A DNA stretch of 64,000 bases from a virus (IMGVR_UViG_3300028048_001801:1-64000); one strand, 5' to 3'; positions 1,861 to 44,812 are shown, counted from the first letter of the stretch. Made by a program: numbers and translations. Notes: generated from the sequence alone by a model not told the origin.

Positions 1861-2589
1861 TTAACTTGGAATCGCCTGTATTCTGCTGGCTAAACTCACC
1901 CAATTACCAGTTGTTTGATATGTAGAGACGCTACCCGCCGGTACATAAATAGGACAATTATTCGTATTACTAAAAGCATTCGCACTTCCTAAGGTTGGGG
2001 GAGTGATTGCATTTATTGTTATGCTTGTTAAACTGCTGCAAAGGGAGAACGCATTACTTCCTATACTCGTGACGGAGCTCGGGATAGTTACTTCGCTCAA
2101 ACTGCTACAACCTGAGAACGCATTACTTCCTATAATCGTGACGGAGCTCGGGATAGTTACTTCGCTCAAACTGCTACAACCTGAGAACGTATACCCTCCT
2201 ATACTCGTGACGGAGTCAGGGATTGTTATTTCGCTCAAACTGCTACAACGATAAAATGCATATCCCCCTATACTCGTGACTGAGGCGGGGATAGTTGTGC
2301 TCGTTAAATTGCTACAATAATAGAACGCATAACCCCCGATACTCGTAACGCTATTACCTATAATTGCGCTCGTTAAGCTGCTGCAATTGGAGAACGCGCT
2401 AGATCCCACACTCGTGACAGAGTCAGGAATAGTTATGTTTGTTAAACTACTACAATATGCGAACGCATAACTCCCTATGCTTGTTATACCACTTAAATCA
2501 TCAAGGCCAACATGGGTTATACTCCTGTCGACAATTTTTTTAAACTGTTCACTATTACTGTAACCCATATCTGTCAAAAAAACTGGCAT
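1861..2589 (-). CDS. BspA/TpLRR-type leucine-rich repeat protein
   Basis: 23-aa repeats of the form IPxSVTSIGxxAFxxCSSL, with a C-terminal IYVPAGSVxxY cap. Confidence 0.9.
   Translation of the reverse strand: MPVFLTDMGYSNSEQFKKIVDRSITHVGLDDLSGITSIGSYAFAYCSSLTNITIPDSVTSVGSSAFSNCSSLTSAIIGNSVTSIGGYAFYYCSNLTSTTIPASVTSIGGYAFYRCSSLSEITIPDSVTSIGGYTFSGCSSLSEVTIPSSVTIIGSNAFSGCSSLSEVTIPSSVTSIGSNAFSLCSSLTSITINAITPPTLGSANAFSNTNNCPIYVPAGSVSTYQTTGNWVSLASRIQAIPS
2045..2189. repeat. Near-exact 69-bp tandem repeat (LRR unit)
   Basis: gagaacgcattacttcctata[c/a]tcgtgacggagctcgggatagttacttcgctcaaactgctacaacct starts at 2045 and 2114, with one mismatch. Confidence 0.9.
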
Positions 2590-2593
2590 TTCA

Positions 2594-4342
2594 TTATCCT
2601 CCTATCCATGTATACTCAAGCTCTATATCCTGTGTCGGTTTATTTATTGCATTGAAAGTCAAAGTGTCGCTTGTAACAATACAGAATAAGTCTGCGTTGC
2701 TAGCCAGTGTTTTATTAGCTCTGTCTTTTGGTTTAATAAAAATAGAATCTCCAGAGTTCACCCCTGGCATATTATAAAAATAATTATTACTTGAGTCCCA
2801 GGAGTTTACATTTAAAATTAAATCACCTGTGAATGATGTATACCAATCAAAATACTTTTTGGCACTTATAAATTTATCGTTGTTGGTTCCAGTTCCTTCT
2901 TTCAACAAACTATTAAATTGCGCTTGTGTACCATTATAATATACTGTTTTTAAACTGTCGCAACCGCTGAAAACATAATTTCCTATACTCGTGACAGAGT
3001 TCCCTATTGTTATGCTCTTTAAGCTGCTACATCTTTCGAACGCACCACCTCTTATGCTCGTGACGGAGTCGGGGATTGTTATGCTCTTTAAACTGCTACA
3101 ATTAGAGAACGCACCATCCTTTATACTCATTACAGTGTCAGGGATTGTTATTTCTGTTAATTTACTACAGAAATAGAACGCATAATATCCTATGTCTGTT
3201 ACGCTGTTGGATATCACGACATTCGTTAAATAACTTACAGCACCAGAGAACGAACTGTTAGTGCTACTTACCACATCACCATCACTTATTTTGGTGACGC
3301 CATAAAACTTCGCTTCATAAGTGCCCGCCGCTGTATAAGTATGACTATACGGCCCAGCACCACCATCTGAAATATCTACGATTGTTCCATCGCCCCAATC
3401 AATACGAATAAGCCCCGTAAGGTTTTTGACTGACAACTTGGTGCTAGATGCAGTTGTTGTAAATATAGCGGTGATGCTTGGAAGTCTATCTTGTTTCCAC
3501 TGTAGAGCATTTGTTATTACTTTATTCTGCACTGGATTCTCTGAAGATGAGTCTAAATGATCGTCGACGATTATCGCTCCCGAACCACCTATCTTATACT
3601 CAGTGTCACCTATTGTGATATAGTTAACCTCAACAGAAGAGGTCCCAGACGAATCAACAGAAATTTCAGCGCTTATGACATCGTTGTTTATGTTTATAAA
3701 ATTACCAGGTGTAAGCGTATTTTGTTTCCTTTGTAAGGCATTATAAACCGCTTTATTTTGTATGGCATTAGAAGAATCGGGACTCAGAGATGAATCTATA
3801 ACTATAGTGCCGCCTTCCCCAATTTTTATATTCCCACCCTGCAACAGAGAATTACCATTAATTGTAACAATGTTTACACCAGAAACTAATTCATCTTGTT
3901 TGCCCGGTACGCTGATAACATTTTCAGCATTAATTTTAACAGCATCTCCGGGCGTTAATTTATTTTGTTTTTTTTCTAACCCCTCATATATAACTTTGTT
4001 CTCAACTGGATTTTTTGATGTCGAAGATAAAACTGTGTCTATTGTTCTTTCTGGAGACATTAAAACTTTAGCTATAACAAAGCCGGACGCGGGGCGATTG
4101 TCTACACAATATAAAACGGCAACATCTCCGCTCTTAAAATTATATTTACATTGATTAACAACGTTGCTTATTACTGTTTTGTTATTGTCATTTGCCAAAT
4201 AAAGGTTTAGAGTACCATCTCCATTTACACTTGCGACTGGACAAAACATCGTATCGTCTCTTTTTTTTAATTCTTCTGCGCTTATGTTTCTTATAAGATC
4301 AACTAGTCCAGCTGAAGCTTGATTTATTTTTTCGTTTGACAT
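2594..4342 (-). CDS. Putative tail/baseplate spike-adhesin with PKD-like domain and BspA LRRs
   Basis: N-terminus resembles OB-fold baseplate proteins (VASVNGDGT...FKSGDVA). Contains KQNxLTPG and SxNPVQNKVI fibre repeats, an IDWGDGT PKD-like motif and LRR units. Confidence 0.65.
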   Translation of the reverse strand: MSNEKINQASAGLVDLIRNISAEELKKRDDTMFCPVASVNGDGTLNLYLANDNNKTVISNVVNQCKYNFKSGDVAVLYCVDNRPASGFVIAKVLMSPERTIDTVLSSTSKNPVENKVIYEGLEKKQNKLTPGDAVKINAENVISVPGKQDELVSGVNIVTINGNSLLQGGNIKIGEGGTIVIDSSLSPDSSNAIQNKAVYNALQRKQNTLTPGNFININNDVISAEISVDSSGTSSVEVNYITIGDTEYKIGGSGAIIVDDHLDSSSENPVQNKVITNALQWKQDRLPSITAIFTTTASSTKLSVKNLTGLIRIDWGDGTIVDISDGGAGPYSHTYTAAGTYEAKFYGVTKISDGDVVSSTNSSFSGAVSYLTNVVISNSVTDIGYYAFYFCSKLTEITIPDTVMSIKDGAFSNCSSLKSITIPDSVTSIRGGAFERCSSLKSITIGNSVTSIGNYVFSGCDSLKTVYYNGTQAQFNSLLKEGTGTNNDKFISAKKYFDWYTSFTGDLILNVNSWDSSNNYFYNMPGVNSGDSIFIKPKDRANKTLASNADLFCIVTSDTLTFNAINKPTQDIELEYTWIGG

Positions 4343-11499: not shown

Positions 11500-14400
11500 T
11501 TATTTGTTGTTATGACGAGTTATAGCCATATATTGCCTTGCTTCGGCCAAAAGTTTATTGAAATTAAAATCACTATCCGCATTTACAGTAATATTAAGGT
11601 CATTTACATGCATCGAATTGTCTTCAGTTGAATTGAAACGATTCGCTTCGGTTTTGATCGTAGACAAACCCTTAATGAGATTCGGAGATAATTCGCCAAG
11701 TTGATAAAGGTTCTTAGTAAGATCTGCTGGGACTATACCTGTATGTGCAGGGAGAGCTGTTATGGTGCCTTGCGGGGTTACAATGCCCTCGGTACCGAGC
11801 TCATTGATAAGAGATGTCTGATTAAAGTCCCCTATATCATAAGCACCGCCCATATAGCCAGTTTGAGCAACAAGCCTCTTCCACTCACCACTCCGTTTGA
11901 TCGCATAACTATCTTCTGCTTTTATTGACCCTCCTTTGGCGTCGGGAACCGCTCCAAAGAAAACCACCGTTCCATCTGGTAAAGATTGAAATTCGTCATA
12001 CGAAACCGACCTATATTTGGCACCAGGTTTTCCTGCACTATCAGTAAAAGACGTAACTTCCATTACTAGGTCACTTCCCGGGTTTTTGTCAAACCCTTCT
12101 ATAACGTTGTAAGCCGTTGAACTTTTTTCAGATTTTTCTATAAGTCTATAAATTTTGTCCGCATTCCAAATTCCAGTTGTGTTGTTCCTGAGTTTTAGTC
12201 CAACAAACTTCATTACGCTATCAGCTGTGTTTGTTTTGCCTTCTTTCATACTATCTAAGTTGGTCAAATCATCTTTTGAAAGTTTATTCATTGTGTTGCC
12301 CAAAACATCTTTTTCTATATTTTCTATTTCATCGCTCGAAACACCCATGGTTTGTAAGTCGTTTTTAATCTTTAAATAATTATTATAAGCCGTATTTTGA
12401 GCTTGTTGTTGTGCAATATATTTTGAAGTAGTTTCTTGTCCTGACATATTGCTCATATTAGAACCCGCATCTCGTATTTTAGTAAGCTCTTCTTTAAGTT
12501 CGGCTTTTTTATTATTTCTATCTTGTGTTGCGAAGGATTCCATTGTTGAAATATATTCTCCCCAATCTATTGTTTTTGATTCGCCGCCACCGAATAAATT
12601 TAAAATACTCCCGATACCATCAATACCGCCAACACTTGTTTCTATTGATTCTAGATAACTATCATATTTCTCAACAGCTTTTTTGATAGCTGCCAATTCC
12701 TCATTTTTAGAAATATTATCTAATATGCTATTTTGCTGTTCCAATAAATCAATTTGATATTGTAAATTTTCCTTCTGCGTTTCTCTTTCCAAATTTTCAA
12801 TATTTTCTTTCGCTTCTCGAATAGATTCTTCGTTAGCCTCATATGTCCAACCAACCCCAAATCGATATACGCGTCTTTTTTCTTTTTTTGCATTTTCCAA
12901 AGCCTCTTTAGCTTTGATTAATTCCAATTCTTTTTTTCGTTGTTCATTTATATCCGACAACGCATCAATTTGAGTTTTGAAATTTTCAATAGTGGCTTCA
13001 TTTTCGCGCTTTCTTGAATCAATAATAAGATCCTGCAATTCTTTATAATAATTATTCTCTATCTTTAAGTCATTTAAAAATTTTATTAAAATTTTCTGTA
13101 GATTTTCATTATTATTAAACAAAACCTCTACTTCGTTTAAGCTTTCAGCACCTATCAACGCACTAAAATCATCTTCGGTCAAACCAAGGTTATCTTTACC
13201 TTCTTGCTTTATATACTCCTGAAGAGTTTTATAAGTAGATTTATTCTCTTTTAAAGAATTAAATGTCGCTCTTTCATACAAAAATGCTTGAGTAGATTGT
13301 AAATTTTGCGACCCGAACAATTGGGCAAATAAATTTTCATATACGTTTTCTTTACTAGTCGAAACTAATTTGCCGTTTTCATCATATTTATTATACAAAT
13401 CGAAATATTGGTCGTTTATTTTTTCTAAAATTTCTCCGCTCAACTTGCCCTTGCTAGACAATTCATTAAATATTGAAATTAGTTCACTATAAGATTCTCT
13501 TAATTCTTTTGGAGATTTCATCAAATCGGATAGAGTTATTGATCCTATAACGTTCTTAAAAGACATTGCGCTTTCTGTTGACATCTTCATAGCATTGGTA
13601 AAGTTTTCTAATTCTTTATCATCTAACAAATAAATATCTTCTCTCAATTTTTCCAACGCGTTGTCTAAACTCTCATCTCCATAAAATGATTTGGCAAGTT
13701 TTTCAAGAGCCTCTCGTCCTCCTTCTGTAAGAGAACCAATGTGATCCATTGTAAAACGGATCTCATCATATGTTTTATATTGCCCTTCAGAAATATCGTT
13801 GATTTTTTTTGCAAAATCTTCTTGACGTGTTTGTAAATATATCAAATTATTAAAAGTTTTACTCGAACCAGTAAACAATTTATTAAATTCCCCATCTGCT
13901 CTTAAAAACGTTTCTATTTGTTGTCTGGCCGAATCCGTTAGTTCTCCTGACAAATCTCTAACGTTCATTCCTGTGAGCGTTAAGTTATCCGCAAATTTTT
14001 GTACTGCGAATTCCAATGTAGAATTTGATACATCAACAGCTGACCACATAGCTAACCCCGATTTCATAAAAGCAGATTTTAATTCATCTTGCCACAAATC
14101 TCTATTAAGCTTCGTTATTGCGGCTTGGCTACTCTTATATGTGTCTACGGCATTTTTCAATCCAGATAAAATATTTTCATTCCTTTTATTTTGTTCAATA
14201 ACCCCAGAAATAAATCCTTTTTCTATCCGTTCGATTGCCTCTACAGCTGATTCTATTTTTGCTTCAGTAGTATCACCTTTCAAAACCGCGAGACCATATG
14301 TATGCCCATTTCCCGCGTCTGTTATACTTGTTTTAAATGTATCTCCTAGTTGCTTATATATCTCACCTGTAAAGAAATCAACACCTCCATAACGGCCCTC

Positions 14401-16002
14401 TTCTGCTGAATAACGATTATTGGTGGCTTTTAACGCATCCTCTATCTTTTTTTCATAAGATTTTCTTTCTTCTTCTTGTGTTTTATACTTTTCAATAGCG
14501 GTTTCTTCGGCTGTATAGTTTTCAACAACATTTAAAATTTGTCGTTTTTGATCATCATTATCCCCTAAAAGAATTCTTTCTAATTCCTCTAAGTTATGAT
14601 TCATAATATTAGAAAAATTTTCTGCCGTAAGATCAGTGAAACCAGTGTCCTCTATTTTAATAAGTTCATTAAAGAGTTTTTGGAAGTCATCAAAATTTTC
14701 AGATAACGTTGAAATTAATTCATCAACATTTTTTTTGGCATCTGCAACCTTTTCTGCGGTCGTCAAATCATAAACCGCCGATTCTACTTCTTTGGTTGCG
14801 TTTTTAATTTTATTCAATGCCTCAAGTTGCTTCTTTGCATCCTCAACACGTTGTTTTATTGAAATTTCCTCAGAATGCCTTAGCCATTTAAATAAGCCAC
14901 CTATACCATCACCGATTATGGGGCCAAGCACTGGCCCTAAAATCGGACCAATGCCAGGTATTGCAGTTAGTAATCCTGTTGCCGCGCCTGTTGCAACACC
15001 GTTAATAAAGTTATCGGTCGTATCAGATTGGATATCGTTGATTTTAACATCTTTAGAGCCCATGAGGCCGCCAAAGTGAGAGTTGGTCCCAGACATGCCT
15101 GCCTGAATACCAGCGACAGCACCTGTTAACATACCTGTTTTTATTTGATTTTTAATAAGTTGTTTTCTTTGAGCGTTTAAACTTTCTAAAGCCGTAGGGT
15201 CTTCTATCGCTTTCCCTTCGTTATCTACCCATTTTCCCCAGCTTCGAGCGGCATATACCATATTACCATCTTTATCTTTTGCCGCATATCCAAGTCCCAT
15301 TCCCCACCGTCTATTAAAACGATTTTGGTTTGTAAGACGAGTAATTTCTTTTTGGTTGGCTTTTATCTTGCCATGAAAAGTTGTCTGTATATTATCTATG
15401 GTCGTAAGATGTTTTTCATTTTGGGCACCAAGAGCTTTAATTTGCGCTCTATTAGCTACGTTTTGAGCATGTCTGCTTCCAAGATTAAAAAATCCTGGGG
15501 TGGTGATTTTACCACCACTTTCTATTCCCGCTATTTTATTCGCTACTGCTATTAATCTTTCAATATTTGCATTAACTTTAGTAAATCCAGCGCTAATAAT
15601 AGATTTTTTGTCGCTCTCCTGCATGGCCGATCCAGCAAATTGCATATGTTTAATGTTTAAACTATTAGTTAACTTATTTATAGGATTCATAAAACCACCA
15701 AATCCTATCTTATAAGCATTCATCGCTGTCAGCATAGAAGTTAATGAAATGATTATTTTATCAAGATGTTTAACAATCCCTGCAACAACATTGAAAAATC
15801 CTTTGAGAACTTTATTAGAACCAAGTCGCTGTGTAAAGCCCTCCCATGCGTTTTGAACCTTGTTTATGCTAGCTTCAATAGATTCCATTTGAGCTTCATA
15901 TTTTTCCGCAGCAGTTCCCGCTGAGTTGGCTGAAATTTCTTGAGCTTCACGAACTCTATCCCAGTTTGAGAGCATAACAGTAAAGAAGTTTCTTTGACGT
16001 GT
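11500..16002 (-). CDS. Tape measure polyprotein, exon 2 (1500 aa)
   Basis: The reading frame extends upstream of ORF 15975 to TRQRNFFTVMLSNW. Joined to exon 1 it gives AFAG|TRQRNF. Helical/coiled-coil with a GA-rich hydrophobic segment and an INELGTEGIV C-terminus. Confidence 0.88.
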   Translation of the reverse strand, partial: TRQRNFFTVMLSNWDRVREAQEISANSAGTAAEKYEAQMESIEASINKVQNAWEGFTQRLGSNKVLKGFFNVVAGIVKHLDKIIISLTSMLTAMNAYKIGFGGFMNPINKLTNSLNIKHMQFAGSAMQESDKKSIISAGFTKVNANIERLIAVANKIAGIESGGKITTPGFFNLGSRHAQNVANRAQIKALGAQNEKHLTTIDNIQTTFHGKIKANQKEITRLTNQNRFNRRWGMGLGYAAKDKDGNMVYAARSWGKWVDNEGKAIEDPTALESLNAQRKQLIKNQIKTGMLTGAVAGIQAGMSGTNSHFGGLMGSKDVKINDIQSDTTDNFINGVATGAATGLLTAIPGIGPILGPVLGPIIGDGIGGLFKWLRHSEEISIKQRVEDAKKQLEALNKIKNATKEVESAVYDLTTAEKVADAKKNVDELISTLSENFDDFQKLFNELIKIEDTGFTDLTAENFSNIMNHNLEELERILLGDNDDQKRQILNVVENYTAEETAIEKYKTQEEERKSYEKKIEDALKATNNRYSAEEGRYGGVDFFTGEIYKQLGDTFKTSITDAGNGHTYGLAVLKGDTTEAKIESAVEAIERIEKGFISGVIEQNKRNENILSGLKNAVDTYKSSQAAITKLNRDLWQDELKSAFMKSGLAMWSAVDVSNSTLEFAVQKFADNLTLTGMNVRDLSGELTDSARQQIETFLRADGEFNKLFTGSSKTFNNLIYLQTRQEDFAKKINDISEGQYKTYDEIRFTMDHIGSLTEGGREALEKLAKSFYGDESLDNALEKLREDIYLLDDKELENFTNAMKMSTESAMSFKNVIGSITLSDLMKSPKELRESYSELISIFNELSSKGKLSGEILEKINDQYFDLYNKYDENGKLVSTSKENVYENLFAQLFGSQNLQSTQAFLYERATFNSLKENKSTYKTLQEYIKQEGKDNLGLTEDDFSALIGAESLNEVEVLFNNNENLQKILIKFLNDLKIENNYYKELQDLIIDSRKRENEATIENFKTQIDALSDINEQRKKELELIKAKEALENAKKEKRRVYRFGVGWTYEANEESIREAKENIENLERETQKENLQYQIDLLEQQNSILDNISKNEELAAIKKAVEKYDSYLESIETSVGGIDGIGSILNLFGGGESKTIDWGEYISTMESFATQDRNNKKAELKEELTKIRDAGSNMSNMSGQETTSKYIAQQQAQNTAYNNYLKIKNDLQTMGVSSDEIENIEKDVLGNTMNKLSKDDLTNLDSMKEGKTNTADSVMKFVGLKLRNNTTGIWNADKIYRLIEKSEKSSTAYNVIEGFDKNPGSDLVMEVTSFTDSAGKPGAKYRSVSYDEFQSLPDGTVVFFGAVPDAKGGSIKAEDSYAIKRSGEWKRLVAQTGYMGGAYDIGDFNQTSLINELGTEGIVTPQGTITALPAHTGIVPADLTKNLYQLGELSPNLIKGLSTIKTEANRFNSTEDNSMHVNDLNITVNADSDFNFNKLLAEARQYMAITRHNNK

Positions 16003-17768
16003 TTTTTGTATTGTACTGAGTCATAACTTCAGTATGAATTTTAATTATTATAATTTTGTTGTATATATTTTAATGTTTCATCGAGTTTGTTCGGGAAGAA
16101 ATTTGTTACAAATTCGATAAATTGTTGAGGGGTATTATTCCCAAAACCATATAAACTATGGAATTTAATGTGAATATCTTTAGATAAACAGATACCATAT
16201 GGGTGCATTCTTTCTTGTTTTCGATATGCGTTAATAATTTGATTTTTAAACGAGCCATTCTTTTTATTTACGTCTTCAATATCAATTTCTTTTAATCCCA
16301 GATCACGCAAGGTACTTGCTATTATTAAATTTCTAGAAAATAAATGATGAACATCATCAAATTTAGCACCAGTTAAAAAACATTTGTTCTCGCACATTTC
16401 TATCGACTTTTCCCTCCATTGATTGGAGTATTTGTCCAAAAATCTACTGAGATTATGATAATTAGTATCATCATCTGGATCTTGGCGATATAATTTTAAT
16501 TTTCTTCTTACTTCTTTGATGCTTTGAGGCTCTCGGTGTAGAACTTCTCCAATTTCGACGTCTGTCATTTTTTCATAATTCTCTCGAATAAAAGAATAGT
16601 CTTTTTCCGTATATTGATAACCTGGCCCATTCCCTATTAAACCCATTTTTTGTAATTGTAAATTAAGTTGCCTAATATTTCTATTGGGCAATAATTTTAA
16701 AAGCTCTATTCGTTTCATTTTATGATAATTTAATCGTATGACATTTTTTTCTTCCAAAGTCCAACTAAGTCGTTTTTTAACATTAAGTTTTTGTATAATT
16801 GTTAAAATAGAACTTTCGGTTCGATCAAGATTATATTTAAGTATTAACTCTCTAATTGTAGAACATTTTGTATAATTTTTTTGAATTATATCTCTTTCTT
16901 CATCTGTAAACTTTACAAACTTTCTTCTAATACCCAAAAATTTAGCTCGATTTGTAATCTGAATCTCATCATACCCTTCGAATCTAATAATCACTTTATA
17001 CCATGGGGTTACAACATAATTCTCAACAATCCACCTATCATCTTCTTCTGTAAAGTCTCCCCATTTACAAACTTCAGATTTTTTAGCACCTAACGATATA
17101 GCTCTGCCGATAATTTGTTTTTGAGTCAATCCACTAAAATGTGTTTTAATCTCTTCCCACGATGCAGTTAAATAATTATTTTTTAACCACTCATCATCTT
17201 CTTTTGCCGCAATCCTTCCCATTAGCGACAAATCGCGCGTTAAACCAAGCTCCCCCGCAACGCGAGACAACTGTTTTTGATCATACTCTGGGAACATTTT
17301 ATTTAAGGCTTCCCTATCAATTGTGGCACAATTTTCTTTTAACCATTCTATACGCTTTTCTTCCATAAAATATTCCCTCTTTTAAATTTTTAATATATTT
17401 AAGGTATATATCAACCCTTTACAACAAAATTATAAATTAATTCACTTATTCTTTCAAATAAGAATAGACCATTTTTTAACCCACACCATCATGTGTTTCG
17501 GGCTATACCTTTTCCATTTAAGGGATTCTCACCCACGCCATACATTTGCGCCGTACTCCTGTAGTCTCTCGACCCCTTCGGGGATGGTCGTTGAACGTTC
17601 CACATATTTTAAAAAACTTAGTGGCTTCGCTGCATGATCTGCCAATCCTTTTGTTTTAAAACCATCATAATCTGGTTTCCCGATTATTGTGGTAAAAGGC
17701 TCTAAGGCTTTACCTGCAATTAAATATATTCTTTAACATATATTTCTATATGTTCAGGCACACATTTT
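16003..17768 (-). mobile_element. Group I intron (1766 nt) in the tape measure gene, carrying an HNH homing endonuclease
   Basis: P1 CAGGU/GCCUG has a U-G pair at the 5' splice site. P10 AUGUGU pairs with exon ACACGU. Core elements: AAUUGCAGGUAAAGCC, GAUCAUGCAGCGAAGC, R GUUCAACGACCAU, S AAAAAAUGGUCU, P9 CUUAUU/AAUAAG. Removal restores the frame. Confidence 0.92.
16041..17366 (-). CDS. Intron-encoded HNH homing endonuclease with N-terminal Myb/SANT-like repeats
   Basis: C-terminal CFLTG...DVHHL...GICLSKDIHIKFHSLYG.GNNT, and repeated (W/F/Y)TxEExxxIxxNY units. Lies 3' of intron P7/P9. Confidence 0.8.
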   Translation of the reverse strand: MEEKRIEWLKENCATIDREALNKMFPEYDQKQLSRVAGELGLTRDLSLMGRIAAKEDDEWLKNNYLTASWEEIKTHFSGLTQKQIIGRAISLGAKKSEVCKWGDFTEEDDRWIVENYVVTPWYKVIIRFEGYDEIQITNRAKFLGIRRKFVKFTDEERDIIQKNYTKCSTIRELILKYNLDRTESSILTIIQKLNVKKRLSWTLEEKNVIRLNYHKMKRIELLKLLPNRNIRQLNLQLQKMGLIGNGPGYQYTEKDYSFIRENYEKMTDVEIGEVLHREPQSIKEVRRKLKLYRQDPDDDTNYHNLSRFLDKYSNQWREKSIEMCENKCFLTGAKFDDVHHLFSRNLIIASTLRDLGLKEIDIEDVNKKNGSFKNQIINAYRKQERMHPYGICLSKDIHIKFHSLYGFGNNTPQQFIEFVTNFFPNKLDETLKYIQQNYNN

Positions 17769-20700
17769 ACCTGCAAACGCGGTTGCGACTGCGCTTTGTT
17801 CAACGGAACTTAAAGTGTTCCACTTTTTCGCCAATTCATCAAGAACTTCTCCCATATCACGCATTTCCATTTTGGAATTACGAATGCTTATTCCCAATAC
17901 ACCTAAAACTTTTTCAATATCGTTTATCTTCTCAAGGTCTTCGCCTTCAGTCATCATAGACACGAACGAGCCAGCTTTAACATTGCCGTACCTAGACAAA
18001 ATACTTCTGACTGCGGTACCTGCCATTTCAGCAGATTGCTGAGTAACATCCATAATAGTGGTAACCATCGCTGCAGTTTCATCGAGGGATAATCCCATTT
18101 GAGAGGCAATCGCCGATGTCCTTGCCATAGCTTCACCGATTTCACCAGCGGAGGCCGCATAGTTCATATCAAGCTTCGTGAGTTTGTCGACAACCGTACT
18201 CGCTTCGCTAGCTTGCATTTTGAAACCTTTTAATGTTGATGTTAAAACTTTTGTCGCAGAGTTCATATCAAGCATACCGAGCTTGGATAATTGAGTCGTC
18301 GCAGTAATTAAATCCATAGACTCGCTTATAGAATAACCCTGTCTCAGCCATTCGTTTGCCGATTGCGCCAAAGCAGTGGTAGTGGTTCCTAACTCTTCTG
18401 CTAATTTATTATAGCTTAAAATTGCGTTATCAACTTCTTGCCTATTCATACCTGTAACAATACGAATATTCGTTGCTGCTTTATCGAGCTCTTTTGTTAT
18501 ATTGACAATTTTCTGGAATTCTTGTCTTAGTTTACCCAATACCCTATATAAACTAAAATATTGCGTAATCTGTCTAAGAATACTGTCCTTACTCCAACCC
18601 ATTTGATTCCAAACGGATTGTTTCTGTTGGCCACCGCCAGCACCACCGGCAGCTTTGCGAGCCATTTCATCAAGCTTGAGTTGATGCTCTGCTTTATAAT
18701 ATGATAAAAGATCGTTTTTATTACTTTCATTCTTTACATTTTTTTCGGCTTCTTCTCGTGCCTTTGTAGCAACTTCTAAGTTTTTGTTCTCTAAAGTGTT
18801 TAAATCGTCTAATGCTTTTAACGCGTCTGGATTATTGGCATATTTCGCCCTTTCTTTATCAAGTTCTAAAAGCTTAAGTTTTATAGCATATTCTTTTTTA
18901 AGAGCCTCTTCATATGCCTCTTCGGCCGCTTTTTCATCTTCTTCGGCTTGTTTTTCTTCTATTTTTTTTCTAGCGTTTGGGTCTATTCCGGTTTCTCCAG
19001 CAATGGTAGATTCCACGAATCTATCTGTAACAAAATGATGGTCTTCTTCATCAATTGCCGAGACGTTATATTTGCCAGAATCAATAGTTTCTAAGAGGAC
19101 GCGTTTGAAGTTCGGGTCGTTTAATAATTGTTCTATATCAGCTCTACGCGTTACGAATTGCCCCGTTTTTTGATTATAAGACTGGACAGCAGCGGTTATC
19201 GCAACGTTCTCTTGCGTAAGTTGTTTGAACAGACTTTCGTCGATGTCCATCCCTATATCTTTTAATGGATTTTGAGCCCCATTAAATTTAGCAAAGTCAT
19301 TTTCTGTGTACCCGTGTTCTTTTATATAATCTCTGGCTTGTTTCAAATAATAAGCATACAACACCGGTTGCATTGCTTCTTTTGCTGTGAGGTTGGTGTT
19401 ATTTTTGGTTTTTATATCTTGTACTTCAATAGTAGCCATATTTTCATCGTCTACAAATTGATGTAATTCAGAATCCCATCTTTTGCCACCATAACTGCCA
19501 ACTATAGTATCGGCCCTGCCGTGTTGCGCGTGCCCAATAACGCCTGCAAGATTCACTTCGGATTGAACGAATCCGCCCTTTTCGTTTTGACTAGCCCTAA
19601 TTCTAGAACCTCTATTAAGTGACTCTCCCGCATAAGTAGCATTAGTAATACTTGCTTCTTTAGCTGACAAGTACGCAGACTCGTCAACAGATTGTTTTTT
19701 AATATTGGCTTCCGCTTCGCTTATTAAATGGAAGATACCGTGCTCGTGAGTTTCTTTGTTTTCTTCTGCCCAAAATTTTTCCCAGAGTTGTTTTGCGGCA
19801 TCGTTAGTTTCTTTTTCTTTTTCTAACCACGCCTTCATTCCTTCATAAGTGTCTCCGGCGTATCCTATGTCTTGAGCTTCGCCTATGGCCGCTTTAACTC
19901 CGTGCGCTACATTACCAAAAATCATAGCGCCTTCAGAGTCTGCATAACGTTTATATGCTTCGTCACCATATAGAGACATTAAATATTTGCCAGCGTATTC
20001 ACCGCTAAACTCTTGACGTGCGTTTCTAAACCCCGTTAAATCAGGGAATTCACCACCGCCAAAAGCGTTTCTTATCATTGTTGTTACACTTGGGTTGTAA
20101 ACATTTTCGCCCTTAGCTTTTTGCTCCGCAAGCCAATGTGCTTTATCTAGTTGTTTTGTCGCATCTTTTAAATCTTTTAGCTTTTGAATATTTTCACTGT
20201 AAGCCTCGCCTTCTTTTTTTGCTACGCTAATCTTATATTTTTCTGCTTCAGCCTCGCTATAAATAGCATCCTCTAGTCTTTCGGTGGCGTCGGCAAGAGT
20301 GTTTACGGTCTCCGTGTTTTCGCCAATTTTTTTACCGTACTGAGATGTATATCTATCCCAATAATTTCCAGGATCAGTCTCTCCGCCATGCCCAGTTCTA
20401 CTCCACGTCCTCCATTGATATGTTTTGGGATCTGCTCCGCGGGCGACCATTTGTTCCTGGGTTGATTTTACAGCATTCGCTACAACGTCTGATGAAAAGC
20501 GGCCATAATCCTCGGCTTTGCCATGAACTATAGCCTCATAATTTGGTCCTAATAATTCTTTTAGTATTTTATCTCCGTGTGAAAAACCTTGTATAGCAGA
20601 CATTGTTACGGCCGAAATACGAGAATCTAAGACCTCATCTTGTCCAAAAATTTTAAGACGGGTCATTTCTTCAAAAAGTTTGTTTAAATCCCCTGTCTTT

Positions 20701-23700
20701 GCCAAAATATCAAAAGCATTGCCAGCCCCACTAAAAAGTTCCGCTATTTTTTTATTTCCCTCTTCTTCGGATATTTCTCCATTTTGAACCAATAATTTAA
20801 TAGCATGTTTTGCAGAAATCATGTTCTGCTCAATACCCTCAAGCATATTTCTGGTTATCATGGATTTGGCCGCTTGAAGTTGTCCTTCATATGAATTTCC
20901 CACAGAAATATTGCTTAAACCTGTGGCGTCTATCATATTACTAATGGCGGTACTCATGTTGGACGTCATACCAACCTGACTCTTAAAATGTTTAGCAAAT
21001 AAAGCTGTTACCTCTTGTAAGTCTTGTTTTTCGCGTAGGGAAAAAGCCTTTTCATCCAAACCAAGCTCGCCCATCTTTTTTACACGATCGGCGGCTAAAC
21101 GTGGCGCTGCTCTTAAATAAATCTCGTTTTGTTTGTCTGTGAAAGCTCTGCTTTCTTCTGGATCCGTAAAAATTAATGGATTTAAAAACGCCGAAATAGT
21201 ATCGCTATCGAAATCCATGTTTGAAGCAATACGCTGCGCAAAAATGCCTGTAAATTCAGTGTCGTTTAAATCTGCATCTTGATTGATGAACCATTGCATG
21301 CCACGCATATCCATTCGATTGGTAAGCGGCCAACGCAATATGTCTCCCGCAGCACCACGAACTCGCATTCTTTTTAACAACGAATTATATTTCGCTTGGT
21401 CTAAAACTCCATTTTTATCAGTGGCTTGTCGTCTAACTTCTTCGTCTATCCATTCTTGCAGTTTTATAAAACGTTCGCTTCGTAACGTGATATAATTTGC
21501 TATTCTGTTTTCAAGCTGTTGAACACCTTTAATCCCTTCGAGTGTTTTGTCATCTATAAGTTCATCTCGTCCAAAGGTTAACTCTTTTAAATAATTCTTA
21601 TAATATTGTATTTTAGAAGCATTATTGCCTAATTCTTTAGTTTTGTCTCTTAAATTTTTTAAAAAAGCATTTCTATTAGTTTGAAATCCAATTGTGTTTA
21701 TATCCCTATATACATTATCTTCGTCGTGCAAAATACCAAAAACATTGACGCCACGTCCGTGAAACTGTTGGGATCCGCTGACAGCGTTTTTATGCCCTAG
21801 CTCATAGTAGTAGCCTCGATCACGAGCGTTTTCTTGCCCAATTAAAAAATCCTCTGCATGTCTTCCAATACTTGCCCTTGCTTGTTCTCTGTCCTCTGGC
21901 TTATTCGGATTGTTAAAAGTTACAATAGCACTCATCAAAGCCGTTAAATCGCCAGAATTCTGAGGAAGAGTGTAAGTTCCATCTTTGTTCTGTCTGATAG
22001 GGATGTTGGGTACATATAATCTATTAACTTTATATTCGTTTCCCTCTCTATCTTTTCTAATTAATGGTGCATTAGAGAGATCAAAATACGCTCCAATATC
22101 GTCAACACTAATATTTGCATCTGGGTTATTATTCTTGATTTCTTTAAGCTTATTTTCTTTAGCAGTTTGTATTTGACCCCAAATTGTTTTGGCAACCAAA
22201 TCAATATTCCTAATTCTACCATCGGCGTCCCATAAACCCTCTACCCCAAGAACACTATCCCATGCTTTTTGTATATCAATATCGTATCCTGGGCCATAAC
22301 CTATCGAAACAGACTGATTTCTTATAATATCATTATCTGTCCCGCTTTGACCAGAAAGTAGAGCTGCGGTTGTTATAGCTTGTTCCGCCATTTCGTATTC
22401 AGCTTGGTTTTCTTCTGATGGCGAATATGCTCTAAATAATTTATTGCCATAATCAGACATACCAATGGCGCCCGCGACTTCTAAAACAGCCTTACGAGCT
22501 TGATCATTAACCTTTGCATTTTTACGCGGATTAATTGGTAATGTTTCCAAAACATTCATAGTTGCATAGCGCAATCTTGTGTTTATTTTAGTTTTATATT
22601 CATCAAGATCTGAAAAATCATTAAAATCTATTAGACTAAACATATTACCAAATGCCGATTTGATTTTTTCCACATCCGCTTTTTTTGCATTTTTAGATAA
22701 CTTGAAGCCGCCCTTTTTACCTAAAACTAATAAATCTGCTAAGTCTCCTGCTCCATTATCTCTTAAATACTGGATAAAACCCTCTCTCCATTTGCTAGTG
22801 TCTTCTCCGTTTAACTCTGCTGGAAGCACGTATGTTTTTTTATAATCTTCAATAAGAATTGGTAACTTCTCGTTGATCGCCATCGCCAAGTCATTATATC
22901 CAATAGTACTGCCGCCAATAAAAGCTCCAACATGGTATCTGTCTATGTCTTCATCTTTGACACTATCGGGTATACCAAACATACTTCTAATAATTTGTCT
23001 AGCATAAGCCCTGGAAATTCCAACAGCTTGAGTTCTTCTTGCGCCTATAGCAATCTTAGTGTTTTCATCCATAAAAGATAGGTAATCAAACTTAACGCTT
23101 GTCAATCCGCTTTGATTATCTCTTTTAACCATTAAGTTTCTACTGGTTTTTTTATCAAACAGATGAGAATATTCCTTCTCTAAAATTTCTTCAACAGCAC
23201 TCTTTCTTTTTTGGTCAGTGTTTTCATTCTCCCACTTTTCAATAAAAGCTTTTCTCGATTCTAATTGACGTTCAGCCGATTTAATTTCTTTGGCCATCTC
23301 ATCTCTTATGGTTGGATCCACCTGCTGTTCCATATCGTCTTTCAGATCTTGAAGTTCTTTTTCTTGTTGTGAAATATGATTTTTATACAAATTATATATT
23401 TGTTCTCTGCGCTTAACTCTTTCGTCAATTTGATCGTTGGAAATATCTACCGTTTTATTAATATAACTTGTCAACTCCTCGGACATTTCCTCTGTAACCA
23501 CGAGTGACTGGTCATCATCTACAGAAGCGGCAACATACCCAAACTCTTTATAAAAATCAGCTTCTATGCTTTCTAATTTTTTAATTTCTTCTCTAAGGAC
23601 TTGTTTATCTTTTTTGTTAGTTGTTTTTGCTAACTTTTCGCGTAATTCTTTTAATTTTGGTTCGGCCTTTTTTTTTGCCTCTTCCATTTTGGCTTTGCCC

Positions 23701-25298
23701 GCTCGCCATGCTTTTTGTAAAATTTGATCATCGGTTTCCATTACCGGATAACGTTGGTGTTCGGGGCCCGATTGAATAACTTTGTCACTTTGCCCCATTA
23801 GTTCGTTAACAAAACCTTTTTTGGGGGTATTTACCTTTTTAGCCGTTTTAGCAGTTTGAATTACTTTACGCAACATTGCGGAAAGCTCTGCGCCAAAAAA
23901 TGCTTGACTATTATCTATGAGCCCAACTACCTGCCTCGACAAAGCCTCTTCAGAATTTGCCTCAAAAGATAGATCAAAATCAGAAACAAGTTTATCTATT
24001 AAGGGTTCTATTTCTTCAAATACCCCGCTATGGACAAGTTCAGCCATGTCTGAGGACTTAAGTAATTCTTGTTTGAGCTCCGCACTTACGTTTAGAGCTT
24101 TTATATAAATAGCCCTCATTATTTGCATTTCTAACGTATTTTGATTTCTACCATTGTTTCCTTTTCCTTTTTTGGCCAATTTGTCAAATCGTGTAAAAAG
24201 CTGTTTAATCCATGTGTGGAGATTGACATTATTAGCCTTAAAAAAAGTTTGTATTGCAGAAGAAGTACCATATTCGTCTTTGTCAAGATTATATTTATTG
24301 GTGTTTAATACGGCAGCTTTATCCATTACGCCTGTCTTAAGATTGTCCGCCTTCCATTTGGCCAATCCTCTATCTTTTCCAAACTCCTCAAATAACCTAT
24401 CAGAGGCATCTGCAAAATCAGATAAATATTCCTGTGGTAATGTTATTAATTTGTTATTACCACTATTGTCCATATATGCAGAATAAGTAGCCGCCTTTTT
24501 ATTTCCGTGTTCTACAAAATAACCATTTTTAACAGGGAAATAATCTATTTCAATCAAGTCTTTTGTATATTCTTTTGGGATTCTTAATTCTCCCTTTTTA
24601 TTTGCAACCTTATGCGCTTCCAATTCTGCTTTGGGAACAAAGTAATATTTATTAGAGTCTCTCCCAGAACCCCTGACGATTACGCCACCGTGTTTGCGTG
24701 CATTGTCTTGTATTTTTTTAAAAGCAGCGTCAATACTTTTTTTATCTAAGCTATTTGGGTTTGTTGAAGGGCTAACTTTTTTTGCCGCCTTAGATGGTGT
24801 TGTTTTGTGACGTGTGGAACTTTTAGCGTATTTAACAGACGCTTCTATCTGTTTGGATGAAAAACTTTTATTCTGCACCTCTTCAATTGTTTGAATCGTC
24901 TTATTTCCTATATGTGCTATATTTGAAAAGGCTTCTTTAAATAAATGTTGTATTTCTCTTGGATTTCCTGAACTTTCTCTATCGTTTTTGAGACGTTTTA
25001 ATTTATCCTCTATCCCATCTCCAAAATCTTTCAAATAATCTCTAATTAACACATTAATAATTTCATTTACTTGTTTTGGGTCTTCAATTGGCGTCGTAGA
25101 ATTATTTACAGCTTGGGCTATTCCTGTTTTTATATCATTTAAGATTGGGATATATTCTTTAATGGAATCGCCTAAAGCCGCTATACCTTTATCATTGGTG
25201 TTACCTTTGTTATATTTCTCCAATCTTTCAATTTTATCTAATAAGTCTTTCTCCTTAACGAGGTCCATTAATGATTGCAATCTTTTATTATAAGCCAT
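17769..25298 (-). CDS. Tape measure polyprotein, exon 1 (2510 aa): RNAP-like region, PD-(D/E)XK nuclease and TP901-type tape-measure core
   Basis: R1322-W-P...N1360-M-DFDSD; GRADTI...EVQDIKT...QPVLYAYYL; ELDKAATNIRIVTG...WLRQG...VVDKLTKLD...AGTAVRSILSRY tape-measure core. Confidence 0.85.
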
Positions 25299-41035: not shown

Positions 41036-41102
41036 TTGATTGTCGTTTCTCCTTTATTTGTTTTTTGCCTTTTATATCCTGTTTAAAATCAACGTCAACC
41101 TA

Positions 41103-41609
41103 TTATTCTATGTCAATCAAAACGGTAAAATCTTTAAAATGAACGTCAAAAGACTTATAGTCGTCTTGATATCTTTCTGCATATTTAAACCATATATCAG
41201 CCTGTTTACGATAAGGTTCAAACATGATTAAAAATTCCTCTAATTTGATTTTTACTTCATAATCCTCATTAAGTTCCGCTACTTCAATCGCGGTGATGAT
41301 TGAACGCCTGTAATCATTGCACAGACCAAGAACGCCCTCGAAAATTTTATATAAATTCCCTTCGAAGTCTTCCTCGTGCGAGATAATCCCTTTTCTTACG
41401 GGTCTTGCATCTAATTCAATCATCATATCCGTTATGACATCTGCGAATACAGGAAACTTATGTGCAAAAGATTTATGAACAATCGATTCAATATTCGGGA
41501 AATGATAATATGCTAAATTATATGCATAATTATCAACAACCGCATTTGCATCGAAAGAGAATTTTACAAGTTCATTAAGTTGAGATCTCGTCTCTTCGGT
41601 AATTAACAT
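41103..41609 (-). CDS. Ferritin-like four-helix protein
   Basis: 168 aa, helical, with H/D/E spacing (ESIVHKSFAH..FAD...AELNEDYEV...LEEF) reminiscent of ferritin/Dps. Confidence 0.45.
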   Translation of the reverse strand: MLITEETRSQLNELVKFSFDANAVVDNYAYNLAYYHFPNIESIVHKSFAHKFPVFADVITDMMIELDARPVRKGIISHEEDFEGNLYKIFEGVLGLCNDYRRSIITAIEVAELNEDYEVKIKLEEFLIMFEPYRKQADIWFKYAERYQDDYKSFDVHFKDFTVLIDIE

Positions 41610-41610
41610 A

Positions 41611-41850
41611 TTAATCTCCCTCTTTTTTATTTTTATATGTTTTTAGAACTCCCTTTTCGTCTCTTATATAATGAAAAGGCTTTCCACAACATTTACATAT
41701 TCCATACACATGCTCTGGCACGGTAAAAGTTCTTCTAGCATCCAACAATACGATCGTCGTACCCTTTGATTTAATATGATGATTGCATTTTTCATATTGC
41801 GGATCGATTATACCATATTCGTTCGGAACTTTTTTAATTTCTTCACCCAT
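41611..41850 (-). CDS. Small Zn-ribbon protein
   Basis: CxH...CKCCG; GAGGAG RBS before the ATG at 41850, overlapping the portal stop. Confidence 0.5.
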   Translation of the reverse strand: MGEEIKKVPNEYGIIDPQYEKCNHHIKSKGTTIVLLDARRTFTVPEHVYGICKCCGKPFHYIRDEKGVLKTYKNKKEGD

Positions 41851-43888
41851 CAATGTACTCCTCCACATATCTTTCTTTGCAGTCATCGCAAAGCGGTTCG
41901 TTTGACTCCGCTCCACATATTATACAATGTCCATCAAAAGAACTAAAATCTCTCATATCAGCCGTGTCCAAACCACTTTCTTTAGAAGCCGCAGTATTGT
42001 CGTTCTCGACCTCCGATATATCTATCTCGGGTCTGCCAGCGCCAGTTCTTTGTTCTGTTACAGTAACACTTCCGCCATCATCGGTGGTATTTTTTGTTTT
42101 ATTTTGCTGGGCTTGCGTTACAGTCTGAAAATTACTATATAAATCCAGCGAATTGATGTAAAGCTGAGTAGCTTTAACATCTCTGAGGTTCATATTGTAA
42201 GCGGACGCAAGTTTCGGTAATGCAAAAGTGGCACCAGAAATAAACAACTCTTTAGCTGTCTTCATTTCATTATCATAAGTAAATATATTTCCCCATAAAT
42301 AAACACGCCATTTATGATCACACCCAATGAGATTATTGATAATAAAGTTTAAAATCGATTCGAGCTGTCTTGTGACAAAATCACAAGCCGCCTCTTCTAT
42401 CAATTGAGAACCTTTTATTTGTGCGACAGATGGCTTATCTGTAACGGGGATTAAGCCTGATAGTCCCGCCCTGGAAACAAAGTTTTTAGTTGCATTAGAC
42501 GTAATGTCTGAGGAATTTGGGACATTTGGCAATGATAACAACTTAAAGTTTTTAAGGGGCGCAAAGAAAGCCTCTAAGTTCGTCGAGGTAGAAGTATTAA
42601 ACTTCTCCTGGAAACCAGCGACAGTCTCGGCCGCCAATACAGTTTGGTTCTGCCCTGGATTCGGGTTAGCTACTGTTTCAGCTTCCGCTGTTAACAAAGC
42701 GGTCAAGGGCGTACTTTGAATTAATCCTGCAAGTGTATCATAATCTGTTAATTCTCTCAATCCGAGGAACAAACCGACAGTATCAGGAATAGCCCACGCC
42801 GTAGAAGAATCCGTGCAAATGGTAAAACATACGTCTTGTGGTAATTGCACCCAATACATATAGTTTACTGCCTTGAGGCCTTTCTTATTATTAATCCTAT
42901 TTATGGTAATATTACCGCGTAAGGTTTCTGTTATTCCAGTAAACCCATCTGTATAATTATATTCAAAATTTTTTAACGCATTTATGTCAACCTTATATTT
43001 GTCTACACCAGGCTTCCCGCTTAAATAATCCGGGTTTTCATATATGGCACCCGTATCCATAAGCGCGTCCCATATTTCCCTAATATAACTAGGATATTGA
43101 TCTAGGCTAAACGAGGGATTTAAGAACATCATCATGTTCAAGCTGGCCATATAACCATGCTCGCCAATGCCTGTTAATTTGACCCAATCGCTAGGAAGTT
43201 TTTGAAAGGCGACATAATTAACCTCTCTCTTACCGTTCGTGTTCTTAGAAACACTATTTCTTAAAAGATAGGTAGGCTTGCCTTCTCTTTTTGTTTCTAA
43301 AGACATACGCTTAAATGTGTTAACAACGTCTAAATGTTGCAACCATTCATCCACATATATATCTTCATTAACAAACGAATCTTTAGTATAATCATCATCC
43401 TTCAGTAATTCAGGTATTTTATAATACTTGAACATCGGAATGTCCGCTGCAAGTCTTAAAATTTTATAATACAAAAATTGACTGGAAGATAAAGACCAAC
43501 CCTCACCGCGAAGGGTAATTTCGGATCCGCCTGGATTTCCAACTATTTTAGTTAAGGTTTCCGTATCCATCTCATTTGGATACGTATTTAACATTTTTAA
43601 TCTTTGATTTTGCAAAAATGGGTTATACATATTAAAATTAAATATGCCACCCTCCCATCCTGTACCAAGCCCAGTTATGCCAAGCAACGAATTATAAAAT
43701 TTCGTTAAACTGGTTTGCACTTGATCAACAGTAATGGGCTTTTGTTCTTTGTTAATATCTGTTTTAACAGACATCTCTAAGCGAGTAGCCTCTTCATTTA
43801 TTTGTTTAGGAGGCTCTTTGCGCGGTCTACCGCGTTGGCGCTTTTGATTCTCTTGGATAACTAAATCCTGTTTTTCTTTTTCAGTCAC
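41843..43888 (-). CDS. Portal protein
   Basis: 681 aa between terminase and protease; QKLPSDWVKLTG, ATFALPKLASA and GAGRP motifs like SPbeta-type portals. Confidence 0.75.
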   Translation of the reverse strand: MTEKEKQDLVIQENQKRQRGRPRKEPPKQINEEATRLEMSVKTDINKEQKPITVDQVQTSLTKFYNSLLGITGLGTGWEGGIFNFNMYNPFLQNQRLKMLNTYPNEMDTETLTKIVGNPGGSEITLRGEGWSLSSSQFLYYKILRLAADIPMFKYYKIPELLKDDDYTKDSFVNEDIYVDEWLQHLDVVNTFKRMSLETKREGKPTYLLRNSVSKNTNGKREVNYVAFQKLPSDWVKLTGIGEHGYMASLNMMMFLNPSFSLDQYPSYIREIWDALMDTGAIYENPDYLSGKPGVDKYKVDINALKNFEYNYTDGFTGITETLRGNITINRINNKKGLKAVNYMYWVQLPQDVCFTICTDSSTAWAIPDTVGLFLGLRELTDYDTLAGLIQSTPLTALLTAEAETVANPNPGQNQTVLAAETVAGFQEKFNTSTSTNLEAFFAPLKNFKLLSLPNVPNSSDITSNATKNFVSRAGLSGLIPVTDKPSVAQIKGSQLIEEAACDFVTRQLESILNFIINNLIGCDHKWRVYLWGNIFTYDNEMKTAKELFISGATFALPKLASAYNMNLRDVKATQLYINSLDLYSNFQTVTQAQQNKTKNTTDDGGSVTVTEQRTGAGRPEIDISEVENDNTAASKESGLDTADMRDFSSFDGHCIICGAESNEPLCDDCKERYVEEYIDG

Positions 43889-44324
43889 CTTCGTGAGCCT
43901 CCTTCAAATTTGTTTGTTTGTCATCGAGACTATTCCCGCCCCTGTTTGTTTTATTTTCAAGGTCACGCTGCGCTCTTTGTATGTTGTCATACATTTCGCG
44001 TAGCTGACTTTGATTTTGTTTTTCAGCTTCGCGGTTTGCATAAGCACGATAATTATCCATAAACCAAGCAGAGATAAAATTAAACTCTCTATCCTTACCT
44101 ATGGAATCATATTCTATTGGCTCGCAAAAATATTCATTCAACCCACTCTTTTTTAAACAACGAGTCAAATCTTTTTTATCTTTGTCATCATCTAACCAAA
44201 CATAAACATTACTATTGTCTAATGTGAGATCCGCGATTTTTGCAATATTGTTAATAAACACATCTAGGTCGCCAACCAAGGAAAGATCTAAATGTATTTT
44301 AAAACACCTGTTTAGAATTGCCAT
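43881..44324 (-). CDS. Hypothetical protein
   Basis: ORF with RBS between terminase and portal. Confidence 0.55.
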   Translation of the reverse strand: MAILNRCFKIHLDLSLVGDLDVFINNIAKIADLTLDNSNVYVWLDDDKDKKDLTRCLKKSGLNEYFCEPIEYDSIGKDREFNFISAWFMDNYRAYANREAEKQNQSQLREMYDNIQRAQRDLENKTNRGGNSLDDKQTNLKEAHEGD

Positions 44325-44354
44325 TTTAATTGGCCCCCTTTTAATCCGTTTACT

Positions 44355-44554
44355 TTATCTCCTCCTTGCGAAAGGATTAACTCTTCCCGCAAATGGATTA
44401 CGATTTTGTTTTTGATGCGCTTGATATCCAACCCCCGCAGAAGCGGTTCTACCAGCGTTAAGCAAAGCGCTCATGTCTTGCTTCGGCACCTCTATGTCGA
44501 ATTGTTCCGACCTTCTTAATTTTTGTAAAAAATGAGCTGCCATCGCTAAAGTAT
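44355..44554 (-). CDS. Terminase large subunit, exon 2
   Basis: After splicing, T|AT gives HDDRA-Y-TLAMAAHF. Confidence 0.85.
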
Positions 44555-44812
44555 CAATTTTGTTAATTAAATAAAAGAATACTTTTATTTATAATACGGT
44601 TCTTCTTTAGCTGGTCTGGATACCAGCGACCATATTTCACAAATTTCATTTTGTTATGTTTTGTGTTCAGACTTTTGCACCCGTGTCTTATATTATGAAG
44701 ACACGGCCTCTTCGTTAAGTCGTTCAGCGCCAGACATTGTCTGTTCGCCCTCGTCACCCACTGCTGGGCCTCCGAGTCAATTAGAAGAAGTTTAAAGAGC
44801 GCTACTTCTGTG
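44555..44812 (-). mobile_element. Group I intron (258 nt, no ORF) in the terminase large subunit gene
   Basis: P1 AGAGCGU/GCGCUCU has a U-G at the splice site. P7 is GACUU/AAGUC and the intron ends in G at 44555. Excision restores the frame and removes an in-frame TAG. Confidence 0.9.

Follow-up and report, generated by a model that had tools for sequence, protein, structure and literature searches.

An inherited terminal adenosine in a predicted group I intron family of phage tape-measure genes

Group I introns are taught to end universally in a guanosine (omega-G) that is essential for exon ligation, and very few exceptions have been published. In Coxiella burnetii, both introns of the 23S rRNA gene are self-splicing and one has no omega-G, as stated in the title of the report (Raghavan et al. 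2007, J Bacteriol 189:6572); the intron subgroup is given as IB2 or IA3 (PMC10136302). The ND5-717 intron of hexacoral mitochondria ends in adenosine (omega-A), and its exons are ligated in vivo (PMC8146996, PMC6545197). In prophages of the Bacillus cereus group, tape-measure genes contain group IA1/IA2 introns, namely, TMP-IVS1/2/3 (Tourasse and Kolsto 2008, PMC2504315). Here, we analyzed a 64,000-nucleotide (nt) stretch of DNA, IMGVR_UViG_3300028048_001801:1-64000 (the window), which covers the first 64 kb of the 160,179-bp IMG/VR record of an uncultured phage. On its minus strand, to which all features described below belong, the tape-measure gene is interrupted by a group I intron of 1,766 nt (16003..17768), the first base of which is A17768 and the last A16003.

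The intron is likely a functional, mobile element of subgroup IA2 that is removed from the tape-measure transcript at GGU|ACA despite its terminal A. Comparison with introns that other phages carry at this codon indicates that omega-A has been inherited and is consistent with a functional intron, and that it is the commonest and apparently also the ancestral state of the clade. On this sequence evidence, the introns form a new clade within a rare, already published kind of group I intron without omega-G, and represent a conserved natural exception. The rarity of omega-A had been pointed out in a first-pass annotation of the window, correctly, although the closest precedent, that of C. burnetii, was omitted there. 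A literature search for omega-A in phage introns returned no report.

Splice junction and fold of the tape-measure intron

The minus strand carries a 2,514-codon open reading frame (ORF; 25298-17754), followed by a 1.77-kb gap and then by an open frame that extends to 11500. Tape-measure exon 1 (17769..25298) comprises 2,510 codons and ends in ...GCA GGU (AFAG), as delimited by the ORF list, the PF10145 profile, and an alignment of homologues. The PF10145 (PhageMin_Tail) match lies in the C-terminal part of exon 1 (E value, 2.3e-34), with the end of the profile falling on the last residue before 17769. When read through unspliced, exon 1 reaches a UGA stop (17756-17754) five codons past 17769. 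Exon 2 (11500..16002; 1,500 codons plus the stop) begins with ACA CGU CAA (TRQ). Splicing would be needed because this start has neither a start codon nor a ribosome site, the first ATG following nine codons on, at 15975. The predicted spliced gene contains 2,510 + 1,500 codons (~4,010 amino acids [aa]), and the expected join runs from ...GCAGGU to ACACGUCAA (GGU|ACA).

The position of this join is set by uninterrupted tape-measure homologues from IMG/VR, at least seven of which align over AFAG|TRQ residue for residue with zero gap. The window sequence VATAFAG|TRQRNFF is matched by VASAFAG|VRQRESF, ISTAMAG|TRQKEIF, VATALGG|TRQRNLL, IATAFGG|TRMRENF, IATQMAG|NRQQSRF, and LTEALAG|TRQQAIF, and the homologue DNA at the junction reads GGN|ACN AGA or GGC|GTT CGC. 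These gapless, intron-less homologues place the end of exon 1 at 17769 and the start of exon 2 at 16002, and thus identify A16003 as the last intron base. Sliding both junctions by +1 gives an identical mRNA, and the terminal base is still an A (16002); other slides are impossible. Across the intron family, one-base slides of both junctions were ruled out, as they never consistently produce a U before the intron plus a G at its end. In addition, the Arg of the (T/V)RQ motif is invariant and is encoded by CGU, CGA, AGA, or AGG in the relatives, a synonymous variation showing that this residue is translated.

The ribozyme itself is recognized by the Rfam group I model RF00028, which aligns over its full length (1-253) to 17778-17445 with a score of 56.2 bits (E value, 4.4e-13), the gathering score being 50. 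The match appears on a 2-kb search; an Rfam search of the whole window with default filters and the gathering threshold missed the intron. A 396-nt relative (L071) scores similarly, at 55.9 bits. In the Rfam alignment, the P1 hairpin (17755..17773) pairs CAGGU (17773-17769) with GCCUG (17759-17755), which puts a U17769.G17759 pair at the 5' splice site; P1 also covaries in relatives, with AU, GC, CG, and UA occurring at a single pair. The guide, AUGUGU (17765-17760), is part of the P1 loop and immediately precedes the P1 strand. Together with ACACGU (16002-15997) at the start of exon 2, this guide forms a P10 helix of six contiguous pairs that abuts P1. When the P10 register was scanned over offsets of -4 to +4, the proposed register gave six pairs, versus zero to four elsewhere.

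The core from P2 to P9 (17445..17754), as defined by RF00028 and a consensus fold, includes a 72-nt insertion after P7 with two conserved hairpins, P7.1 and P7.2, typical of IA2. The IA2 assignment is suggested by this insertion and by the nearest DNA relatives, which are phage IA2 introns. The P7 strands GACCA (17585..17589) and UGGUC (17467..17471) form the guanosine-binding site, of which G17589 supplies the G of the G-C pair. This site, G-C followed by A-U, is intact in the window and invariant in 11 aligned relatives. The consensus fold of the cores of these 11 relatives contains 71 pairs, 24 of them with double compensatory changes. P7 is followed by the joining segment J7/9, UAUU (17466-17463), and by P9 (17462-17445), which is capped by a GAAA loop. 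A proximal 3' splice site at G17445 was ruled out, as this G is paired within P9 and joining there would lead to an immediate stop.

The actual 3' end lies far from this core. The 5' strand of the predicted P9.1 stem (17420..17444) pairs with a 3' strand at 16035..16063, which overlaps the final codons and the stop of an intron ORF; this pairing was obtained by folding a construct in which the ORF was replaced by a loop (-22 kcal/mol). The endonuclease gene in the P9.1 loop separates the 3' splice site from the core by 1.4 kb. L071, a relative lacking the ORF, closes both P9.1 and P9.2 directly. The terminal hairpin P9.2 (16015..16033) pairs ACUGA with UCAGU around the loop AGUUAUGAC, in which the motif GUUAUGA is conserved across relatives. 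A tertiary docking role of this loop is possible; the motif also resembles a UUAUGA(U/C)GG segment of P5. Between P9.2 and omega, the last intron nucleotide (position 16003; T on the plus strand), stretches an A-rich, single-stranded tail of 11 nt (16004..16014), ACAAUACAAAA. Its last bases pair with J7/9 to form P9.0, and base 3 of J7/9 covaries with omega-1, the base just before omega, being U:A in 13 relatives and A:U in three (L008, L085, and L103). The intron thus displays the P1, P10, P9.0, and P7 expected of a group I intron, while its final base is A16003 where omega-G is expected.

The first-pass annotation had derived the 5' splice site from P1, proposed the P10 that directly abuts it, read AFAG|TRQRNF as an in-frame join that fits the tape-measure consensus, and described a terminal A next to a canonical P7 pairing. 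Each of these assignments holds up against the Rfam alignment, the register scan, and the gapless homologues.

Introns at the same tape-measure codon

Three queries, namely, an endonuclease alignment, exon 2, and a core motif of 25 bases, were used to retrieve relatives of the intron from collections of viral, metagenome, and genome sequences. As single-protein queries of viral contigs, neither exon 1 nor the endonuclease found relatives, whereas the endonuclease alignment did, and an exact search of viral contigs for the 3' junction of the window gave no match. With the window included, 14 distinct introns are located at exactly this tape-measure codon. Omega is A in 11 of the 14 introns and G in the remaining three. 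The A-ending introns are those of the window, L069 (identical to L006), L071/L089, L007, L049, L075 (identical to L017), L085, L081, L102, L103, and the L009-L016 group, which itself comprises eight contigs from three samples. About 19 contigs of independent assemblies and collections (IMG/VR, ENA, JGI, and a metagenome-assembled genome) contribute to this set, and the trait is present in genomes rated complete. The G-ending introns are L008, L067/68/70, and L061 (identical to L001), the last of which has a different core. Two of the A-ending members are ORF-less, at 396 nt (L071/L089) and 405 nt (L103).

The frequency of A at this position excludes chance or error at the level of the family. 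For L069, the terminal A is unambiguous since neither junction can slide; L071 alone is readable as a G-ending intron, if the 5' cut were made after a G instead of at the U.G pair. In nearly all members, the proposed register yields the longest P10, and guide and exon 2 change jointly, as AUGUGU/ACACGU, UUAGU/ACUAG, ACGUAU/GUACGU, UGGGU/ACCCG, and CUUGU/ACAAG, with CUAGC/GUUAG in the L071-type intron. In the consensus fold, the eight A-ending rows alone have 93% paired cells and 24 compensatory pairs. Neither an error nor a recent death of the intron explains the persistence of the A over such divergence together with the retained P10, P9.0, and core.

A maximum-likelihood tree of 15 cores places A on all deep branches, with G arising in two or three places. 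Of 345 core positions, only eight distinguish the A-ending L069 from the G-ending L067; six of these are in the guide and P1 and none in P3-P8. A specificity switch in the P7 pocket was ruled out, as G-C followed by A-U is the same in A- and G-ending introns.

The base preceding the intron (position -1, the third base of the Gly codon) varies as well. It forms the usual U.G pair in nine introns, C-G in L075, L085, L081, and L088, and U-A in L008, L087, and L103. A C at -1 was also seen in related cores at other sites (the L047/L079 type, L078/L101, L099/L100, and L095). The combined pattern of omega and -1 fits relaxed constraint at least as well as the two explanations offered in the first-pass annotation, namely, a protein-assisted choice of the 3' splice site or a throttle on splicing. 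With -1 free in the family, a purpose-built throttle is less favored than relaxed constraint or a helper protein.

Splicing with a terminal adenosine

If the intron splices as predicted, its 3' splice site would be returned to the core by the P9.1 stem, the P9.2 hairpin, a 2-bp P9.0, and the 6-bp P10 stacked on P1. The first step would use free guanosine, as usual. In the second step, the scissile phosphate would be positioned mainly by P9.0 and P10, such that a weakly bound omega-A may be enough. The rate of this step is probably below that of an omega-G intron. Such slow splicing could be tolerable, because few tape-measure molecules are needed per virion.

Several points weigh against a functional omega-A intron. 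In the model ribozymes of Tetrahymena and phages, exon ligation suffers strongly when omega-G is replaced by A, and an A facing an unchanged G-C pocket cannot form the normal base triple. Splicing throughout the family is inferred from conservation, all relatives being metagenomic, and the A at 16003 in this phage is the call of a single metagenome assembly. The argument that a slower second step is tolerable is likewise a deduction, from the low copy number of the tape measure. Finally, the C-G or U-A pairs at -1 in some relatives may point to decay, not tolerance, in parts of the family.

A more far-reaching and rather doubtful possibility is that the clade has lost its dependence both on guanosine recognition in step 2 and on the U.G pair in step 1, with the splice sites being set solely by a helical P1-P10-P9.0 ruler and by docking of the distant P9.1/P9.2 arm. 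If true, the clade would represent a naturally occurring ribozyme variant whose splice-site chemistry is relaxed, for which near-isogenic A/G pairs and ORF-less members of 400 nt are available.

It is also conceivable, but unlikely, that splicing with omega-A requires a protein, either the endonuclease, serving as a maturase, or an RNA chaperone of the phage or the host that holds the 3' splice site. The relaxation of both splice-site rules in the family (A or G at omega; U.G, C-G, or U-A at -1) would be easier with such a helper, and the omega-A intron ND5-717 is described as spliced in vivo (PMC6545197). However, the two ORF-less introns retain omega-A, showing that a helper or maturase encoded in cis is not required. 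The intron ORF moreover specifies a DNA-binding and HNH-like protein without a known RNA-binding module, and the Coxiella precedent is self-splicing according to the title of its report.

Improbable, in turn, is a failure to ligate the exons, which would leave either a tape measure synthesized in two pieces (2,514 aa and about 1,491 aa) or a defective phage. This would agree with the general expectation from model ribozymes that omega-A cripples the second step, and the ATG at 15975 is in the frame of exon 2, but no ribosome-binding site precedes it. In addition, compensatory changes have kept P10, P9.0, and the core across A-ending lineages, a retention that matters only if the 3' splice site is used, and the trait spans deep branches and genomes rated complete.

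There is very little to recommend canonical splice sites elsewhere, either at U17764/G15998 (AFAG-KI-QRNF, of the same length) or at G16016 combined with a frameshift on A AAA AAC. Both would provide a U before the intron and a G at its end; the former is in frame, and AAAAAAC is a slippery heptamer. The 5-nt shift to U17764/G15998 would nevertheless leave the intron without P1, while the Rfam alignment and covariation place U17769.G17759 at the cleavage site, and it would replace the invariant, translated Arg of (T/V)RQ. G16016 is out of frame and needs a +1/-2 shift where the heptamer supports -1, and its use would insert five residues that are absent from all homologues. Among relatives, the G is found at inconsistent distances (6, 10, 13, 14, and 19 nt). 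A base-call or assembly error, with a true G at 16003 on the minus strand, is just as hard to credit: the base does terminate an A6 run of a metagenome assembly, but the 11 A-ending introns at this codon come from independent assemblies.

Intron-encoded protein, neighboring introns, and known systems

The intron contains an ORF of 441 aa (16041..17366), preceded by the Shine-Dalgarno sequence AGAGGGA; 38 nt separate its stop from the resumed tape-measure frame. Its product combines Myb/SANT-like helix-turn-helix repeats with a C-terminal HH...H..FH (HNH-like) domain. The repeats are detected by PF00249 in 14 of 15 ORF relatives and also match Myb structures in the PDB. In the C-terminal domain of 130 aa, the HH, H, and H residues are invariant in 19 relatives. 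A confidently predicted model of this domain (predicted local distance difference test score, 89.8) has HNH nucleases as all of its best PDB folds, although these matches are weak (T5 SciA; E value, 0.07; template modeling score, 0.45), and a Pfam search of the ORF gave no HNH match. The protein is thus a probable HNH homing endonuclease, a weak and unproven assignment. The introns that diverged phages carry at this codon contain related ORFs, and relatives outside introns, free-standing, exist as well; one relative of the protein (P0003) is 61% identical. Within P9/P9.1, upstream of the ORF, a consensus scan for promoter patterns matched TTGAAA-17-TATAAT (17429..17457; 11 of 12 consensus positions). 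This near-consensus sigma-70-type sequence could allow the endonuclease to be expressed separately from the late tape-measure transcript. Several relatives carry, between P9 and the gene of the endonuclease, a further conserved ORF of ~60 aa with the pattern M.EYYNVSQ.R..R.LY.LGF.KES.FDKNG.E.WRF.KTDDL... (about 2770-2960 in L006, with equivalents in L007, L008, L017, and L102), which is absent from the window intron.

The conserved tape-measure motif is a hot spot for introns. Two introns were rejected as members of the family because of their location: MT835469.1 (L059) matches the 5' core at 79% and is inserted about nine codons upstream, and MT835481.1 (L060) carries a different, omega-G intron (about 41050-42340) 6 nt upstream (YVV|AGVRQ). 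The intron of L095, also ending in omega-G, is found 7 nt downstream of the site (TR C|AG). Other group I introns lie further upstream in related tape-measure genes, among them two in the single gene of L001 (about 807-1971 and 2560-3997) and an omega-G intron in L003 (3080-3369; RF00028, 47.2 bits). Rfam did not recognize the L001/L061 intron, in which the ORF lies inside the core. The open frame of L002 starts abruptly at 3410. In exon 2 of L007 (IMGVR_UViG_3300001528_000490) and L049/L054 (IMGVR_UViG_3300045988_168342), in-frame TAG codons stand where homologues have Gln (TR*RN, EGFT*KL); in these phages, TAG is apparently translated as a sense codon. Elsewhere in the window, a candidate ORF-less group I intron in the terminase gene (44200-45000) gave no Rfam match at an E value of ≤0.01.

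In the clade described here, omega-A is the majority state of diverged, endonuclease-mobilized introns in an essential phage gene. Together with G-ending sisters only a handful of bases apart and with members of ~400 nt that lack the ORF, these introns offer a tractable natural system in which the share of guanosine recognition in 3' splice-site choice and step-2 chemistry could be tested against that of P10/P9.0 geometry. Annotation procedures that insist on a U before the intron and a G at its end will overlook such introns or assign them wrong boundaries, and will split the tape-measure gene in two.

Among phage introns, the closest at the DNA level are IA2 introns of Staphylococcus phages K/Twort-like (lysK, pol), Bacillus phage PBS1, and phiKZ-like and Vibrio phages, which reside in other genes and match P7-P9 and P6-P7.2 of the window intron with 72 to 89% identity over 55 to 116 nt. 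The termini of these introns are described as canonical. The layout of the window intron resembles that of the T4 nrdD (sunY) intron, which also has its ORF in the extension 3' of P9 and a distant 3' splice site; this site is reportedly about 1 kb from the core and returned by long-range pairing (Michel et al. 1992, Genes Dev). The T4 intron differs in having omega-G, a GIY-YIG endonuclease, and another host gene. It is 1,033 nt long and contains an ORF (PMC1995217). With respect to the host gene, the window intron parallels TMP-IVS1/2/3, different introns which, in the excerpts of PMC2504315, adapt P1/P10 to one conserved site and for which those excerpts mention no non-G terminus.

ND5-717 shares with the window intron a final A where a G is held to be universal. 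It differs in that it is organellar and strictly vertical, carries genes in P8, is removed by back-splicing in some species, and has neither endonuclease-driven mobility nor G-ending sister introns. The C. burnetii intron, reportedly named Cbu.L1917, is, judging by the title of its description, likewise a group I intron of the bacterial world without a terminal G. It is located in an rRNA gene, belongs to another subgroup, and occupies a single locus in one species, in contrast to the diverged phage IA2 clade with G-ending sisters presented here.

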